A DNA stretch of 32,000 bases from Acaryochloris marina MBIC11017 (GCF_000018105.1 NC_009925.1:270001-302000), one strand, 5' to 3'. Positions 20,836 through 32,000 are shown, numbered from the stretch's first letter. Notes: a model not told the origin generated them from the letters alone. Made by a program: numbers and translations.

Positions 20836-20888
20836 TTGTAGTATGCTCTTGACATTTTTGTAGTATATTTGTAGTATTAATGTAGTGC
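20836..20888 (+). repeat. Four phased copies of T(T)GTAGTAT overlapping the array promoter
   Basis: TTGTAGTAT occurs at 20836-44, 20858-66 and 20869-77, with a degenerate ATGTAGTGC at 20880-88. Spacings are 22, 11 and 11 nt. Confidence 0.7.
20849..20877 (+). promoter_or_regulatory. Sigma70-type promoter of the tRNA array
   Basis: -35 TTGACA (20849-54), a 17-nt spacer, and -10 TAGTAT (20872-77). It lies about 75 nt upstream of the first tRNA. Confidence 0.65.
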
Positions 20889-20953
20889 AGTTGAAACGAG
20901 CTTCTACAGCCAATCAACTTCTGAACCTTGAAAACTGAATATTTGCCACATTT

Positions 20954-21028
20954 GGGGGTGTAGCTCAGTCGGTCTAGAGCAGTCGCCTGTCGAGCGAAAG
21001 GTCGCGGGTTCAAATCCCGTCTCCCCCG
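20954..21028 (+). tRNA. tRNA-Asp(GTC)
   Basis: Acceptor GGGGGTG/CTCCCCC with a T-T mismatch at 6-67. D arm GCTC-AGTCGGTCTA-GAGC. Anticodon loop CTGTCGA. T arm GCGGG-TTCAAAT-CCCGT. Discriminator G. No encoded CCA. Confidence 0.85.
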
Positions 21029-21031
21029 TAT

Positions 21032-21105
21032 AGTCTCGTGGACGATTAGATAAGTCGCTTTGGTTCTCAGTCAAGGAGAAGCGGGTGCAACTCCCGTCGA
21101 GACTT
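21032..21105 (+). tRNA. tRNA-Glu(CTC)-like, atypical
   Basis: Perfect acceptor AGTCTCG/CGAGACT. 3-bp D stem GAC/GTC with a D loop lacking GG. Anticodon stem TTTGG/TCAAG and loop TTCTCAG. T arm GCGGG-TGCAACT-CCCGT has G at position 55. Confidence 0.6.
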
Positions 21106-21113
21106 CTTTACCT

Positions 21114-21186
21114 GTCCAGGTCGCCAAGGGGTCGAAGGCGTCGGTCTGCAAAATCGATATCGTGGGTTCAACTCCCACCCTGGACT
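21114..21186 (+). tRNA. tRNA-Cys(GCA)
   Basis: Acceptor GTCCAGG/CCTGGAC. D stem GCC(A)/(A)GGC with the A13-A22 mismatch typical of tRNA-Cys. Anticodon loop CTGCAAA. T arm GTGGG-TTCAACT-CCCAC. Discriminator T (the Cys identity base). Confidence 0.9.
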
Positions 21187-21195
21187 CCAACCCTT

Positions 21196-21266
21196 GCGGG
21201 GATGGTGTAATGGCAACACCTCAGTCTCCAAAGCTGATGTTCTGGGTTCAAATCCTAGTCTCCGCG
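21196..21266 (+). tRNA. tRNA-Trp(CCA)
   Basis: Acceptor GCGGGGA/TCTCCGC. D arm GTGT-AATGGCA-ACAC. Anticodon arm TCAGT-CTCCAAA-GCTGA. T arm CTGGG-TTCAAAT-CCTAG. Discriminator G. Confidence 0.9.
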
Positions 21267-21299
21267 TTTCCTGAATCCAACGGTTCAGGCAAATACCAA

Positions 21300-21373
21300 A
21301 GTGGTGTACGCAAATGGTTTAAGCGACTTGATTTTCAACCAAGTGATTGCGGGTTCAAATCCCGTCACCACTC
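21300..21373 (+). tRNA. tRNA-Glu(TTC), atypical
   Basis: Perfect acceptor AGTGGTG/CACCACT. 3-bp D stem CGC/GCG. Anticodon stem CTTG(A)/(C)CAAG and loop TTTTCAA. T arm GCGGG-TTCAAAT-CCCGT. Discriminator C. Confidence 0.65.
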
Positions 21374-21381
21374 CCAAACAT

Positions 21382-21466
21382 AGGTCGGCTCGCCTACTGG
21401 CGTGGGCAACTGCCTGTAAAGCAGCCGCTTAATGCGTTGCAGGTTCAATTCCTGCCCGGCCTACCA
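21382..21466 (+). tRNA. tRNA-Tyr(GTA), class II, CCA encoded
   Basis: Acceptor AGGTCGG/CCGGCCT. Anticodon loop CTGTAAA. Variable arm CGC-TTAAT-GCG. T arm GCAGG-TTCAATT-CCTGC. Discriminator A, then CCA (21464-66). The acceptor-to-D junction is irregular. Confidence 0.75.
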
Positions 21467-29688: not shown

Positions 29689-29712
29689 AAGTATTGTTAT
29701 TGCCCAAAACTC

Positions 29713-29840
29713 GCGTTCGCACCCTAACGAAAAAAGCATACATACTCGCCAAATGGTAAGGCACTTGATTTGTAGATCAAGCACATACAGGTTCAACTCC
29801 TGTGTATGACACAACCGCTTTCTTGACTTGTGCGAAGCGC
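29713..29840 (+). ncRNA. Y-RNA-like scaffold, copy 2, carrying a tRNA-like cloverleaf (YrlA-like architecture)
   Basis: Helix 1 GCGTTCGCAC / GTGCGAA(G)CGC. Loop 5' CCTAACG and 3' (T)GACTT. Helix 2 AAAAAAGC / GCTTTCTT. Then ATACAT. The inner module is a 5-bp acceptor-like CATAC/GTATG, D arm GCC-AAATGGTAA-GGC, stem CTTGAT-TTGTAG-ATCAAG (6-nt loop, no canonical anticodon loop), and T arm ACAGG-TTCAACT-CCTGT. A T-run follows the 3' end. Confidence 0.5.
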
Positions 29841-29956
29841 TATTTTTAACGCAATAGCGTTCTGGATTTCTGGTATTGGCAACGTTCGTTCCCCTCCACT
29901 CCCCATTTCTGAGGGGAGTGTCGCCAAAACATTTACAGATTATCTAGAACCACACT

Positions 29957-30697
29957 ATGAGCGAACATCGATTAAGCGAAATCACCATTGAACGACCTCG
30001 TGGGGGAATGAGGCGTAGCCTCAGAAAGGTCAAGGGAGCAAGAAAACAGTTAGATCGCCTCACTGAAGTGGCTACCGAGGATGGGTTACTCAGCCCGTAT
30101 CTCATCAAACCGAGAGGTAAAACAAAGTGGCTTTCAGATCATTTGGGACCGCTGCGGCGATTTTTAAAGTCCCATGTGGGTCAACCCTGGGATGACGTTT
30201 ACAGCAAACTCTGTCGACGGCTTAAAACCAACACCATGGCGGGACAACATGTACTAAGCCATGTATGGGACTTTGTTGAACTCCATGTTGAAATCATGGA
30301 TGGTGTGCTGTACCACAAACCCTACTGGGGCTCTTTTCAGCCTTTAGACTATCGTTGTTATCGGGACAAATTCTATGTGCATCCTGAGACTAGAATTCTA
30401 TGTGCAGTTGAAAAGAAACCTCGTAAGCGACAGCGACAAAGGCCGCCATCCGATAGGGTTGTTATCGATGCCTATCATGAATATCAGCAACTAAACGAGC
30501 TTTGGTATCTGATTACCTATGAGGACTTTCCCCCTTTCCCTGTGATGACCGTGAGAGATGTGCTGCGGGGCGAAATCCCTCGGCAGACTCGATATGGCAA
30601 TATCAATACCCGTTATGCAGTCAAGAAAAAACAGTGTAACAAGAAGGAGATCCGATTTATTTTAAGTCAGATTAAAGCAGTTAAACCTACCTCCTGA
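29957..30697 (+). CDS. Hypothetical basic protein (246 aa)
   Basis: Clean ATG ORF, Arg/Lys-rich at both ends, no motif recognised. Confidence 0.55.
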   Translation: MSEHRLSEITIERPRGGMRRSLRKVKGARKQLDRLTEVATEDGLLSPYLIKPRGKTKWLSDHLGPLRRFLKSHVGQPWDDVYSKLCRRLKTNTMAGQHVLSHVWDFVELHVEIMDGVLYHKPYWGSFQPLDYRCYRDKFYVHPETRILCAVEKKPRKRQRQRPPSDRVVIDAYHEYQQLNELWYLITYEDFPPFPVMTVRDVLRGEIPRQTRYGNINTRYAVKKKQCNKKEIRFILSQIKAVKPTS

Positions 30698-30735
30698 GAG
30701 GGGTTGAAAGTCCTAGCTCTCTGTAGGAGATTGTT

Positions 30736-31416
30736 ATGCCCCACAAACATCACTTTAACCAGATGAAAAATCCTGAATCGGCCTTTGCCCTTCAGGAAAA
30801 ACTGCGGCACCAAGTCATCCGAGAGGACGATTTTGGTCCCCTTGAAACGGTGGCAGGAGTGGATGTTGGATTTGAGGATAAGGATCAAATTGCCTGTGCT
30901 GTAGTTGCAGTACTGAGACTATCTGATCTCAAGGTGCAGGAATCTGTGGCGATTCGTCTTCCGGTTACCTTCCCCTATGTACCGGGATTGCTAGCATTCC
31001 GAGAGGTTCCTATCGTCATGGAAGCCTTGGCAAGTCTGAAAACTCGGCCTGGACTCCTAATCTGTGATGGCAATGGCACCATCCATCCTCGTCGGTGTGG
31101 ATTTGCTTGCCATTTAGGAATTGTTAGTGGACTGCCGTCTATCGGAGTAGCCAAAACTCCTTTCATTGGGGAATTTCAACCTCTAGCCGATGATCGTGGG
31201 GCATGGCAGCCGATCACAGATGGGGGAGAGGTTATTGGGGCAGCCCTGCGGACACAAACAAAGGTTAAACCTATCTTTGTGTCCATTGGCCATCGCATTA
31301 GTTTGCAAAGTGCTATTGATTTGGTGCTCCAATGCGCTCCCGCATATCGTTTACCTGAAACCACTCGCCAAGCCGATCAGTTATCCAAGGGCAATGCCCA
31401 ACCTGTCATCTTATAA
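30736..31416 (+). CDS. nfi: Endonuclease V (inosine-specific endonuclease)
   Basis: VAGVDVGFED......AVVAVL.......E.......TFPYVPGLLAFREVP....AL..L...P.LLICDGNG..HPRRCGFACHLG.....PSIGVAK is the EndoV signature, including the catalytic D in GVDV and the PYIPG-like loop. Confidence 0.9.
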   Translation: MPHKHHFNQMKNPESAFALQEKLRHQVIREDDFGPLETVAGVDVGFEDKDQIACAVVAVLRLSDLKVQESVAIRLPVTFPYVPGLLAFREVPIVMEALASLKTRPGLLICDGNGTIHPRRCGFACHLGIVSGLPSIGVAKTPFIGEFQPLADDRGAWQPITDGGEVIGAALRTQTKVKPIFVSIGHRISLQSAIDLVLQCAPAYRLPETTRQADQLSKGNAQPVIL

Positions 31417-31419
31417 ACA

Positions 31420-31541
31420 ATCCGCACCCCAACAAGAAAAGCTTACATACTTGGTTGAGTCCTTACTTTATAGGGAGGGCTGCAGGTTCAAATCCTGCTT
31501 TGCTTCGCGCAAAAATGCTTTTCATACTTGTGTGGATTTTT
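31420..31541 (+). ncRNA. Y-RNA-like scaffold, copy 3 (module with a T-arm-like hairpin)
   Basis: Helix 1 ATCCGCAC (31420-27) / GTGTGGAT (31530-37), followed by TTTT. Loop 5' CCCAACAAG and 3' CATACTT. Helix 2 AAAAGC/GCTTTT. Then TTACATAC. The module contains GCAGG-TTCAAAT-CCTGC. Confidence 0.45.
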
Positions 31542-31603
31542 CAATTGGATATCGTGCTCTTCACCAGGTCGATGTCCTTCATTTTTTACTAATGGCAGTA
31601 TTG

Positions 31604-31735
31604 CCGCACCCAAACAGAGGGAGCTTACATACTCTCAATGGCCTGTTTCGCCTATCTCCATAGGCGAAACAGGCCGTCGCGAAAGCGAATTGCTTCCTTA
31701 ACTTGTGCGGTGCATCCATTGGGATGTGCTTTGCG
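31604..31735 (+). ncRNA. Y-RNA-like scaffold, copy 4 (hairpin module) plus a trailing terminator-like hairpin
   Basis: Helix 1 CCGCAC (31604-09) / GTGCGG (31705-10). Loop 5' CCAAACAG and 3' TAACTT. Helix 2 AGGGAGC/GCTTCCT. Then TTACATAC. The module has a perfect 14-bp hairpin GGCCTGTTTCGCCT/AGGCGAAACAGGCC and TCGC-GAAA-GCGA. The trailing hairpin is GTGCATCC-ATTG-GGATGTGC followed by TTT. Confidence 0.45.
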
Positions 31736-31773
31736 TGCAATCGCTGCCTCCTAACTCAACCCAGGAGGTTTAT

Positions 31774-32000
31774 ATGAATACTGCAGAACAGGATTTACGT
31801 CTAGAAATGCTGAATAGCTTGCTAACCACCCCTCATCGGAAGTTGGAGCAAGTGGCGGAAACACACCAGTTAATGGTGGAAGTAGACCCGCTATTTTATG
31901 GTCATCTAGCGGTTTGGTATCAACGTTATGGTGATGTGCGTGACCACAAGGAGGTTTTCGTCAGTCACCTGTTAACTAGTGGCATGGCGGATCACCGAGG
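31774..32000 (+). CDS. N-terminal 75 codons of an ORF running off the window; possible divergent Ro60/TROVE-like (Rsr) protein
   Basis: AGGAGG lies 5 nt before ATG 31774. [67 protein letters not shown]. The helical pattern ..DP.F...LA.W....G..R...E.F...L loosely parallels the early HEAT-like helices of Ro proteins. The assignment rests mainly on the adjacent Y-like RNAs. Confidence 0.3.

Follow-up and report, generated by a model that had tools for sequence, protein, structure and literature searches.

A long tRNA array with embedded RNA-repair genes, joined to a putative Ro-like module, in the chromosome of Acaryochloris marina

The DNA analysed here (hereafter, the window) is a stretch of 32,000 nucleotides (nt) from Acaryochloris marina MBIC11017 (NC_009925.1:270001-302000). 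All coordinates refer to the whole window, and the region studied extends from 20836 to 32000. It contains a long series of tRNA genes, interspersed with protein genes that include an RNA ligase and a macro-domain protein, and then a unit that encodes a 66-amino-acid (aa) protein, four structured RNAs, a 246-aa protein, endonuclease V and a protein with a predicted Ro60 fold (Table 1). The setting is a cyanobacterial chromosome, with genes for PriA, histidine kinases and a WecG-type transferase recognised by Pfam in the window; the window is 99.3% identical to a stretch of AP026075.1, a 6.4-megabase chromosome, and a search with the Ro-like protein gave A. marina as the source of the closest named proteins. 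The homologous loci used for comparison are labelled L001 to L089, L084 being the trn operon of Anabaena PCC 7120 on pCC7120delta.

Table 1. Features of the region and its upstream flank. Coordinates are those of the window; bit scores marked R1 were obtained with the covariance model described in the text.
Feature	Coordinates	Strand	Details
HNH endonuclease gene	18736-19254	+	Pfam HNH, 55 bits; counterpart of Anabaena all8564
alr0857-family gene	19313-19696	+	NCBIfam NF045647, 146 bits (cut-off 75)
Array promoter	20837-20888	+	-35 TTGACA 20849-20854, 17 nt, -10 TAGTAT 20872-20877
tRNA block 1	20953-22584	+	17 genes: Asp, Glu, Cys, Trp, Glu, Tyr, Ser, Arg, Phe, Asn, Gln, Gln, Leu x4, Pro (ARAGORN)
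tRNA block 2	23008-23181	+	Degenerate Lys(UUU)-like 23008-23103; Lys(CUU) 23109-23181
ATP-dependent RNA ligase with N-terminal tRNA-binding OB domain	24350-25651	+	Pfam tRNA_bind and RNA_ligase PF09414
140-aa protein	25762-26184	+	Adjoins ligase or Ro-like gene in other loci
tRNA block 3	26286-26444	+	Met(CAU), Thr(UGU) (ARAGORN, Rfam)
Macro-domain ADP-ribose hydrolase (YmdB / O-acetyl-ADP-ribose deacetylase type)	26509-27024	+	Pfam Macro, 163 bits
tRNA block 4	27173-27776	+	7 genes: Gly, Val, Ile(UAU, 90 nt), Arg(UCU), degenerate Ala(UGC)-like, His, Ser(UGA)
Open reading frame	27926-28171	-	Called gene; no homolog in any related locus; doubtful
Second tandem TrcR-type box	28678-28696		ATACTACA..GCTACA on + strand; possible -10 TATACT; putative promoter of Ro-like module
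115-aa protein	28891-29238	+	One homolog (47% identity) beside Ro-like gene, in L052; no family match
66-aa protein	29304-29504	+	First conserved gene of Ro-like module
Scaffolded RNA 1	29512-29688	+	Multi-hairpin inner module; R1 41.5 bits, full model length, at equivalent position in L001
Scaffolded RNA 2	29712-29839	+	tRNA-like inner module, non-conserved "anticodon" loop; R1 119 bits
246-aa protein	29957-30697	+	Conserved module partner
Endonuclease V	30736-31416	+	PF04493, 247 bits; between 246-aa gene and Ro-like gene
Scaffolded RNA 3	31419-31538	+	T-arm kept, D-arm lost; R1 53.6 bits, E = 8e-13; fold z -4.0
Scaffolded RNA 4	31603-31711	+	Hairpin with 18-base-pair stem inside; R1 32 bits, E = 7e-7; fold z -8.1
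Predicted Ro60-fold protein, first 75 codons	31774-32000	+	475 aa in full; continues beyond window to ~33201

The tRNA genes number 28, all on the + strand between 20953 and 27776, and fall into groups of 17, 2, 2 and 7, exactly as counted in an earlier note on this DNA. ARAGORN identified 24 of them, plus one odd tRNA-like element (29739-29812; all 25 on the + strand). Three further genes came from Rfam: His(GUG) (27605-27678), Ser(UGA) (27695-27776) and, in damaged form, an Ala(UGC)-like gene (27502-27598). A damaged Lys(UUU)-like gene at 23008-23103 was recognised by eye. The first 17 genes are packed into 1.63 kilobases (kb); 16 of them also reach the Rfam tRNA gathering score, Glu(ctc) at 21032-21106 being called by ARAGORN alone. 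The note had described all the genes as foldable, which is true of 26; the Lys-like and Ala-like genes fold no better than shuffled sequences (z = -0.6 and -0.85, respectively). In both, a homologous insertion of about 31 nt (GUAnCUCC..GGAGnCGCU..GCG..ACA) replaces the T-loop. One spacing variant of this motif was found only in Acaryochloris loci and the other had no match. The Ala(UGC)-like gene, in addition, has G3.A70. Anticodons for all 20 amino acids are present, as had been claimed, but the set is complete by anticodon only, and this only if one admits the damaged Ala gene, an unusual 90-nt Ile(UAU) and four atypical Leu genes; with two of the 28 genes doubtful and the Ile and Leu genes out of the ordinary, the claim is a conditional one. 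The four tRNA-Leu genes (22082-22504) are 74-78 nt long and therefore without the long variable arm usual in bacterial tRNA-Leu, as they are in the Anabaena array and almost every other array retrieved (L008-L024, L084). A long inverted repeat (22590-22637; CCCTAACTGATCG...CGATCAGTTAGGG) lies directly 3′ of tRNA-Pro, and the preceding tRNA-Ser(UGA) has part of its 3′ half repeated at 27836-27880 (GGTTCGGTCCGCTGTAGGGGTAATTCC), the trace of a local rearrangement at the array end.

The long tRNA array (L-array), or trn operon, of Anabaena PCC 7120 was reportedly described by Puerto-Galan and Vioque in 2012. The A. marina array is colinear with it at about 74% identity, and its first 1.8 kb are 72-78% identical to 17 plasmid arrays of Nostoc, Tolypothrix and Calothrix, including NC_003273.1 (pCC7120delta). 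The order common to the window and Anabaena reads Asp-Glu-..-Tyr-Ser-Arg-Phe-Asn-Gln-Gln-Leu/Pro-..-Lys-..-Met-Thr-Gly-Val-Arg-Ala-His. Since the gene order is the same, the four blocks of the window represent one colinear array split by inserted protein genes. In number, density and orientation the genes conform to the definition of an L-array as at least 20 dense, co-oriented tRNA genes. Similarity extends upstream: the HNH gene is 78% identical (tblastn) to the HNH neighbour of the Anabaena trn operon, and such a gene is conserved 5′ of L-arrays according to the text of PMC8421152. The gene that follows belongs to the alr0857 family; in Anabaena, alr0856 (HNH) and alr0857 are under the regulation of TrcR (PMC10272220). 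Judged by its sequence, the region almost certainly belongs to the L-array family.

The promoter region lends itself to the same comparison. The array promoter is the best sigma-70 match in 11 kb (10/12 positions). Direct TrcR-type boxes (TGTAGTAT) lie at 20837, 20859 and 20870, with a TGTAGTGC at 20881; those at 20859 and 20870 overlap the -10 element, producing the tandem operator typical of L-arrays. The window contains five exact TGTAGTAT boxes against 0.54 expected, and none of 100 shuffles reached this number. Box and -10 element are identical to the site footprinted with TrcR in the promoter of the Anabaena trn operon, which this protein represses (Wang et al. 2023, PMC10272220). The second tandem box of the region has the orientation of the motif found at trcR's own promoter. 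Tandem boxes were found 5′ of every cyanobacterial array locus examined and in none of the non-cyanobacterial loci that carry a ligase homolog. They were also found 5′ of the 66-aa open reading frame (ORF) or of the RNAs in 11 Ro-like modules (L010, L012, L018, L048, L050, L064, L065, L067, L068, L078 and L079).

The text of Santamaria-Gomez et al. 2021 (PMC8421152) describes the Anabaena array as silent in standard growth and induced by ribosome-targeting antibiotics; once expressed, it provides 23 aminoacylated tRNAs and favours survival. Cleavage of array tRNAs is also reported there, and a role as a sponge proposed. The A. marina array resembles this operon in its homologous DNA, tRNA order, upstream HNH gene, TGTAGTAT operators over a TAGTAT -10 element and four Leu tRNAs of class-I size. 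It differs in being chromosomal rather than plasmid-borne, in being parted into four blocks by protein genes and in carrying an Rnl-type ligase with a tRNA-binding domain, whereas rtcB is unlinked in Anabaena. It also differs in being flanked on the 3′ side by endonuclease V and the module of Ro-like protein and structured RNAs, which go unmentioned in the text of both papers (PMC8421152, PMC10272220). The former states that protein genes are "frequently linked or embedded" with arrays and that genes for RNA processing and translation, including rtcB, are enriched in and around them; such embedded or adjacent genes are reported for several species, A. marina MBIC11017 among them. Thus, the array and the general idea of neighbouring repair genes are already known, having been published in 2021. 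The novelty claimed earlier for the locus was overstated as regards the array family, the HNH neighbour and the enrichment of RNA-processing genes; what appears to be new is a cyanobacteria-wide module made of the 66-aa protein, the scaffolded RNAs and the Ro60-fold protein. Among the papers searched, none was found that links TrcR or the trn operon to Ro60 or to a tRNA-like RNA, a comparison that for PMC8421152 covers the text.

Profile searches with Pfam and NCBIfam confirmed the identification of the fusion between a tRNA-binding domain and an RNA ligase, as well as those of the macro domain and endonuclease V, all three proposed in the earlier note. The ligase scores 47.7 bits with PF09414 (cut-off 27) and E = 4e-48 with phrog_548, "RNA ligase". 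Its motifs K137-I-K-L-D-G (KIKLDGTN), FGEW and FKAKGEK are invariant in 12 sequences. Residues 104-427 are 34-39% identical to RNA ligases encoded in 240 phage genomes. The N-terminal domain, which matches PheT-B2 and Trbp111-type OB folds, is absent from all of these phage homologs. Like Rnl5-type (DraRnl, NgrRnl), Rnl2-type and phage (phrog_548) ligases, the protein has a nucleotidyltransferase domain with KxDG and other motifs and, as in DraRnl, an OB module precedes the catalytic domain. Unlike in Rnl2, Rnl5 and phage enzymes, this module is a recognisable PheT-B2/Trbp111 tRNA-binding domain. A C-terminal helical region of about 110 extra residues is held in common with the phage enzymes. 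The profile match to the catalytic domain of T4 Rnl2 is weak (E = 0.004), the score with the DraRnl equivalog TIGR02306 stays at 24.4 bits (cut-off 151), and no match to NgrRnl was obtained with the ligase among PDB sequences.

Ligase homologs from 41 genomes were compared. The gene lies among array tRNA genes in the same order in 16 of about 20 cyanobacterial loci, with 58-74% identity across many genera (hosts include Microcoleus, Microseira, Hormoscilla, Acaryochloris and several metagenome-assembled genomes). Of the 21 non-cyanobacterial loci, from Myxococcota and other groups, 19 are devoid of tRNA genes; a single tRNA is present in another, and six tRNA-Ser genes in the last. This last locus (L022, a metagenome-assembled genome of Deltaproteobacteria), the sole non-cyanobacterial ligase locus with a tRNA cluster, carries its tandem tRNA-Ser genes at 8534-9182, on the opposite strand and about 1 kb from the ligase homolog. 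By comparison of these loci, the ligase is a conserved embedded component of the array.

The macro-domain protein (227.4 bits with NF001664, equivalog cut-off 200) and endonuclease V (269.7 bits with NF008629, cut-off 230) have a different distribution. The window macro ortholog is present only in Acaryochloris loci, and endonuclease V is missing from every non-Acaryochloris locus examined. Hence conservation of the neighbourhood holds in part: the ligase-bearing array and the Ro-like module are kept in cyanobacteria, but endonuclease V and the macro ortholog are confined to Acaryochloris. Other ligase-bearing arrays have similar company. Four of the five scanned contain non-orthologous genes for Macro, NADAR or PARG proteins, among them Macro and NADAR in L014 and L017 and a microbial PARG and NADAR in L015. 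PIN nucleases are found in L017 and L024, two RlaP nucleotidyltransferases and a CCA-type enzyme in L024, and RNase T in L010. Four of the five also have an extra, full-length EF-Tu gene towards their 3′ end (L010 15484-16713, L014 16886-18172, L015 17247-18482, L017 19194-20465), accompanied by RibD_C/DHFR-like genes. Similar functions are thus provided in the five other arrays by non-orthologous genes, and, as far as domain assignments go, removal of ADP-ribose, repair of RNA ends and supply of spare translation factors form a recurring theme of ligase-bearing arrays.

The same data bear on the notion that the region is an evolutionary jumble, in which a selfish tRNA cassette, spread by the HNH endonuclease, is decaying, and ligase, macro, endonuclease V and Ro-like genes were inserted by chance and have no joint function. 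The two degenerate tRNA genes, the partial tRNA-Ser duplicate near the array end and the lineage-specific macro and endonuclease V genes would fit such a history. So would the A. marina-only ORFs (orf86, on the minus strand, and orf206), which interrupt the colinear array at the inverted repeat after tRNA-Pro; together with an IS605 OrfB gene in L014, they indicate that insertions occur in arrays. But chance would hardly account for a ligase kept among array tRNAs over so many genera with its catalytic motifs intact, for the same functional classes recurring non-orthologously in independent arrays, or for operator boxes common to array and Ro-like module; and the Anabaena array, according to the text of PMC8421152, is expressed, charged and beneficial. 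We consider this explanation very improbable.

The Ro-like protein is encoded only in part within the window, and its full length was taken from the 99.3%-identical contig, the window translation being the start of the corresponding gene of L001. The earlier note had called a possible Ro-like ORF here, and structure prediction bears this out: the AlphaFold model (predicted local distance difference test score, pLDDT, 79.8; predicted template modelling score 0.71) shows a ring of helical repeats and a C-terminal von Willebrand A (VWA) domain, and matches Ro60 and Rsr structures, a likeness that the TROVE profile misses. In a Foldseek comparison with the PDB, the top 13 matches were all Ro60, Rsr or phage Ro60, aligned over the full length (E 2e-13 to 3e-10, template modelling (TM) score 0.60-0.71); the next ones were isolated VWA domains with a TM score of 0.27. 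The only PDB match obtained with phmmer was Ro60 of Thermus phage phiLo (E = 0.0017). The metal-ion-dependent adhesion site residues D300, S302, S304, T362 and D386 (DxSxS..T..D) are invariant. On the strength of the predicted model, the protein very probably has a Ro60 fold. The family has 3137 matches, with about 70% identity across cyanobacterial orders, and is annotated only as VWA or hypothetical.

The neighbours of this gene recur with it. The 66-aa protein (51-65% identity in cyanobacterial loci, 32-40% in viral contigs) is always found beside the scaffolded RNAs and the Ro-like gene. The 246-aa protein has at least 514 homologs among the matches listed, all cyanobacterial where named and without a Pfam domain; its AlphaFold model (pLDDT 75.6) gave no PDB fold match with E < 0.6. 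Its gene adjoins the Ro-like gene in ten other loci (L010, L012, L024, L048, L052, L057, L065, L067, L074 and L076). In Nostoc and Moorena, the 66-aa ORF, the RNAs, the 246-aa ORF and the Ro-like gene constitute a stand-alone chromosomal module with no adjacent array. In L068 and L078 the module is preceded by the HNH-alr0857 pair. In A. marina, alr0857 and the 66-aa ORF appear to be separated by the array, and the 246-aa ORF and the Ro-like gene by endonuclease V. In this lineage, inserted protein genes split the array, and a second conserved unit, probably of the same regulon, surrounds it. As to the accessory island proposed earlier, the region is a conserved regulon locus in the chromosome and not a demonstrable integrase-borne island. 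A few genes 3′ of the Ro-like gene, Acaryochloris, Nostoc and Moorena (L002 11578-13051, L048 13577-15071, L050 12169-13666) encode a domainless protein of about 280 aa and, after it, a ThiF/E1-like one of about 210 aa, which suggests that the module may extend further to the right. A 618-aa SMI1/KNR4 (SUKH) and HEAT-repeat protein is encoded 3′ of the Ro-like gene in L001 (19002-20858, equivalent to ~33351-35207 of the window) and is absent from L002, also Acaryochloris; the right flank therefore varies between strains.

The tRNA-like element at 29739-29812, to which ARAGORN assigns an 8-nt anticodon loop, lies between the 66-aa and 246-aa ORFs. A tRNA-like gene with a differing "anticodon" occupies the same place in Microcoleus, metagenome-assembled genomes, Nostoc NIES-3756 and Moorena, and alignment revealed that its flanks are conserved and pair with each other. 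A covariance model (R1) was built from related loci. In the consensus alignment of 45 sequences, 19 of the 35 pairs show compensatory changes; 97.1% of cells are paired, compared with 29-52% when the partners are slid, and double-change cells number 142 versus 43 in shuffles, none of 500 shuffles reaching the observed values. The resulting scaffold consists of a basal stem of ten base-pairs, all of which covary, a near-invariant asymmetric internal loop (CCCUAAC / AACUU) and a second stem of seven base-pairs. In the consensus of RNA 2 it encloses a tRNA-like cloverleaf in the normal order, with a variable anticodon-like loop. Each of the four elements folds singly into this one scaffold around a different inner module, and for RNA 1 the minimum-free-energy fold reproduces it. 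Elements 3 and 4 lie 60-360 nt 5′ of the Ro-like start, as do their equivalents in L048, L050, L057, L065, L067, L068, L085, L086 and L089.

Several other candidates were dismissed. A possible fifth scaffold, an R1 match at 21585-21708 (28.7 bits), owes its score to tRNA-Arg and contains neither scaffold strand motif. The degenerate Lys-like and Ala-like genes were rejected as additional Y-like RNAs, being without the scaffold (R1 at most 11 bits) and having the poor folding already mentioned. Sub-threshold YrlA matches of 31 and 23 bits (gathering score 69) sit on tRNA-tRNA junctions, a known false positive according to the YrlA authors, and are artefacts. Scaffold matches do occur in other arrays: between tRNA-Trp and tRNA-Glu in L014 (4476-4610), L015 (4442-4579), L017 (4363-4500) and L024 (8187-8325), and over the full length of the model (46 bits) in the third "gene" of the Anabaena trn operon (L084 3391-3514), which ARAGORN calls a 71-nt tRNA-Ser(cga).

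The architecture is of the Y-RNA type, with the 5′ and 3′ ends paired into a long stem and a variable module at the other end, and the stem would be the protein-binding site. Adjacency, conservation of the scaffold and analogy with Salmonella rsr-yrlBA-rtcBA and Deinococcus Yrn1 incline us, by a modest degree, to regard these RNAs as partners of the Ro-like protein. Alternatively, the elements might be unrelated to Ro and serve as leader-trailer cassettes for processing by RNase III, E, P or Z, as cis-regulatory elements, or simply represent a small repeat that spreads locally. Their presence within arrays away from a Ro-like gene, a copy number ranging from one to at least ten per locus, interchangeable inner modules and the failure to match Rfam or the described Ro-binding motif could all be read in this way. 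Against it, the covariation of the whole basal stem and the nearly invariant internal loop fit a protein-binding site better than a mere nuclease duplex. Moreover, a metagenome pattern scan made on the RNA alone retrieved 33 further loci, 27 of which encode 66-aa, 246-aa, 140-aa or Ro-like homologs beside the RNA and 18 of which show the Ro-like gene; those without a module protein are mostly on short contigs. Linkage persists in viral contigs down to 45-48% protein identity, the elements are on the same strand as the Ro-like gene among the full-length matches listed, and some 150 kb of non-cyanobacterial control loci yielded no full-length match at E <= 1e-6. On balance, we find it somewhat unlikely that the scaffolded RNAs are not Ro partners.

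Known Ro systems provide both likeness and contrast. Like the Salmonella rsr-yrlBA-rtcBA operon, which is stress-induced and tied to tRNA damage (Chen et al. 2014, PMC4201824; Hughes et al. 2020, PMC7790460), the A. marina locus brings together a Ro-type ring protein, adjacent non-coding RNAs, one of them tRNA-like, and an RNA ligase. The resemblance is functional only. RtcB, RtcA and RtcR domains were not found in any ORF of the 18-36 kb interval. In contrast to RtcB, which acts on 3′-phosphate and 5′-hydroxyl ends, the A. marina ligase is of the ATP-dependent, lysine-AMP type, with 3′-hydroxyl and 5′-phosphate ends as predicted substrates. Repressor boxes stand in place of a sigma-54 activator, the Ro-like protein fails the TROVE profile and the RNAs the YrlA model, the tRNA-like part is in normal order rather than permuted, and a spare tRNA set is attached. 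The predicted fold also matches those of Rsr of Deinococcus radiodurans (2nvo) and Ro60 of Thermus phage phiLo (9kop/9l5y), with TM scores of 0.60-0.66; their RNA partners are Yrn1 and Yrl1/Yrl2, respectively (PMC12135203). Yrn1, as described, likewise has 5′ and 3′ ends that form a stem and a tRNA-like part with D, anticodon-like and T arms in the normal order. The structural alignments have only 14-16% identity, however (16% with phiLo Ro60), and the near-invariant asymmetric loop and the up to ten or more RNA copies per locus set the cyanobacterial RNAs apart from Yrn1 and Yrl.

Viral relatives raise a further possibility. Three IMG/VR contigs, putatively from phages, carry the 66-aa ORF, a scaffolded RNA (65-77 bits with R1, immediately 5′ of the Ro-like gene) and the Ro-like gene beside 16, 8 and 3 tRNA genes, and the Ro-like gene is also present in a 595-kb uncultured phage. 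These came from the protein search, an exact scan of viral contigs for the RNA pattern having given no match. The region might then be a captured phage counter-defence cassette, whose tRNAs and tRNA-like RNAs mainly substitute for the tRNAs that anticodon nucleases and VapC/PIN toxins cleave, or serve as decoys in their place, while ligase, hydrolase and Ro-like particle undo damage done by toxins or defence systems. The kinship of the ligase's catalytic part with phage enzymes, the PIN genes inside other arrays, the homing-type HNH endonuclease on the array flank and the tRNA cleavage and sponge proposal set out in the text of PMC8421152 are all compatible with this. On the other hand, PADLOC families for defence and anti-defence matched none of the ten proteins scanned, and classification as a defence system was dropped for this reason. 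The locus is chromosomal, lies between housekeeping-type genes and has a host repressor operator; the identity of the Ro-like module across cyanobacterial orders, as a stand-alone chromosomal locus, looks like vertical inheritance. A counter-defence origin, which differs from a host stress locus in trigger and selective benefit rather than in parts, seems to us unlikely.

Taken together, the results make it likely that the region is the A. marina copy of the cyanobacterial stress-induced long tRNA array, equipped with RNA-repair genes and joined to a Ro-like module. Array homology and colinearity, promoter boxes, intact ligase motifs, the Ro60 fold, an RNA structure backed by covariation and repeated co-location are the grounds provided by this analysis. 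Stress induction, TrcR binding and aminoacylation were demonstrated for the Anabaena homolog and would apply to the A. marina array by analogy, and the biochemical steps performed by ligase, macro domain, endonuclease V and Ro-like particle are all predicted ones. The region is best read as a translational-stress locus, which would combine spare tRNAs with tools that repair or cull damaged RNA. The backup module for translation and repair suggested in the earlier note agrees with this in so far as it fits the Anabaena induction data, the promoter architecture and the gene content of other arrays; the macro ortholog and endonuclease V do not belong to what is conserved in arrays. The Ro/Y-RNA idea, the most speculative of its calls, has become the best-supported new element, with RNA binding as a prediction; its four Y-RNA-like scaffolds are indeed four elements with one scaffold by R1, but not Y RNA or YrlA in the Rfam sense.

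A number of observations weigh against this interpretation. The box scan of the window found no TrcR box directly 5′ of the ligase or macro genes; because of this, and of the inverted repeat after tRNA-Pro, co-expression of the two genes with the array is uncertain. The trcR gene itself was not found in the window, where the ORFs 5′ of the HNH gene were all without a family match. Of the 28 tRNA genes, two appear defunct, and endonuclease V and the window macro ortholog, being lineage-specific, could be unrelated passengers. As to the Ro-like protein, TROVE (PF05731) does not match it, Pfam gives only weak VWA_2 and VWA_3 matches, none of 120 homologs listed has a precomputed TROVE match, and a profile of 42 homologs found no Ro60 among PDB sequences. 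With both TROVE and the family profile failing, assignment to Ro60 comes from the predicted fold and one weak sequence match. Likewise, the direct link between RNAs and protein is adjacency. Rfam searches of 20-32 kb (at gathering scores and at E <= 10) gave neither Y RNA (RF00019) nor YrlA (RF02553) at the four elements, and the motif GNCGAAN0-1G (Chen et al. 2014, PMC4201824) is absent from the 5′ strand, which reads CACUUCGCGC; a CGAAG string occurs on the 3′ strand only (GCGCGAAGUG). Because the Rfam model fails, the tRNA-like part is unpermuted and the 5′-strand motif is missing, the scaffolded RNAs are, by these sequence features, not members of the YrlA family.

If the region is a translational-stress locus, its operation might be envisaged as follows. 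TrcR would leave the TGTAGTAT boxes over the -10 element of the array promoter (~20849-20877) and of a second promoter near 28680. The array transcript would be processed to about 26 tRNAs, adding to the housekeeping pool. The ligase would grip tRNA through its PheT/Trbp111-type OB domain and reseal breaks with 3′-hydroxyl and 5′-phosphate ends, and the macro domain would strip ADP-ribose off RNA or translation proteins. The downstream unit would yield the 66-aa protein, the four RNAs with their two-stem scaffold, the 246-aa protein, endonuclease V and the Ro60-fold protein. By analogy with Ro/Y-RNA particles, the scaffold would dock the RNAs on the Ro-like ring, and the variable inner modules, one of them tRNA-like, would recruit or decoy other factors; damaged or misfolded RNAs would be captured and passed to nucleases, to which endonuclease V would contribute cleavage at inosine sites. 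A broader proposal is that cyanobacteria and some large phages possess an unrecognised Ro60 lineage, unseen by TROVE and with its own class of Y RNA, that this lineage belongs to the TrcR stress regulon, and that its coupling to arrays, ligase and ADP-ribose enzymes makes one inducible system for replacing, repairing and culling damaged tRNAs. We see the chances of this being right or wrong as evenly balanced.

The function of bacterial Ro proteins and Y RNAs is still unsettled, and the role of spare-tRNA arrays only partly understood. If the Ro-like protein binds the scaffolded RNAs, the bacteria with a known Ro system would be extended by a whole phylum, and Ro biology would be linked to a defined and tractable signal, release of TrcR in translational stress, for which Anabaena mutants and reporters exist. 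Judging by the recurring company of ligase, Macro/NADAR/PARG, PIN and additional EF-Tu genes, the damage to be countered would consist in ADP-ribosylation and cleavage of the translation machinery, a testable hypothesis for the persistence of tRNA arrays. RNA-family databases, finally, gain a new, well-supported structured RNA with dozens of members.

The remaining ORFs offer fewer clues. The five proteins of unknown function listed in the earlier note exist as called genes; the minus-strand one at 27926 is doubtful (Table 1). The 140-aa protein has tblastn matches in 12 loci (L007, L010, L012, L052, L061, L066, L068, L071, L072, L077, L078 and L081). ORFs 23486, 25762, 28891 and 29304 gave nothing usable in scans of Pfam, NCBIfam, PHROG and PADLOC, nor did the minus-strand ORFs 22638 and 27926, scanned against Pfam only; matches to NUP160 and MetQ were far below cut-offs. 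Elsewhere in the window, the stretch at 87-3464 encodes a contractile tail-like sheath and three tube (gp19-like) proteins, which probably come from an extracellular contractile injection system or the remains of a prophage, without connection to the array. A 788-aa protein encoded at 7211-9577 has both an animal-type haem peroxidase domain (463 bits) and RTX calcium-binding repeats.

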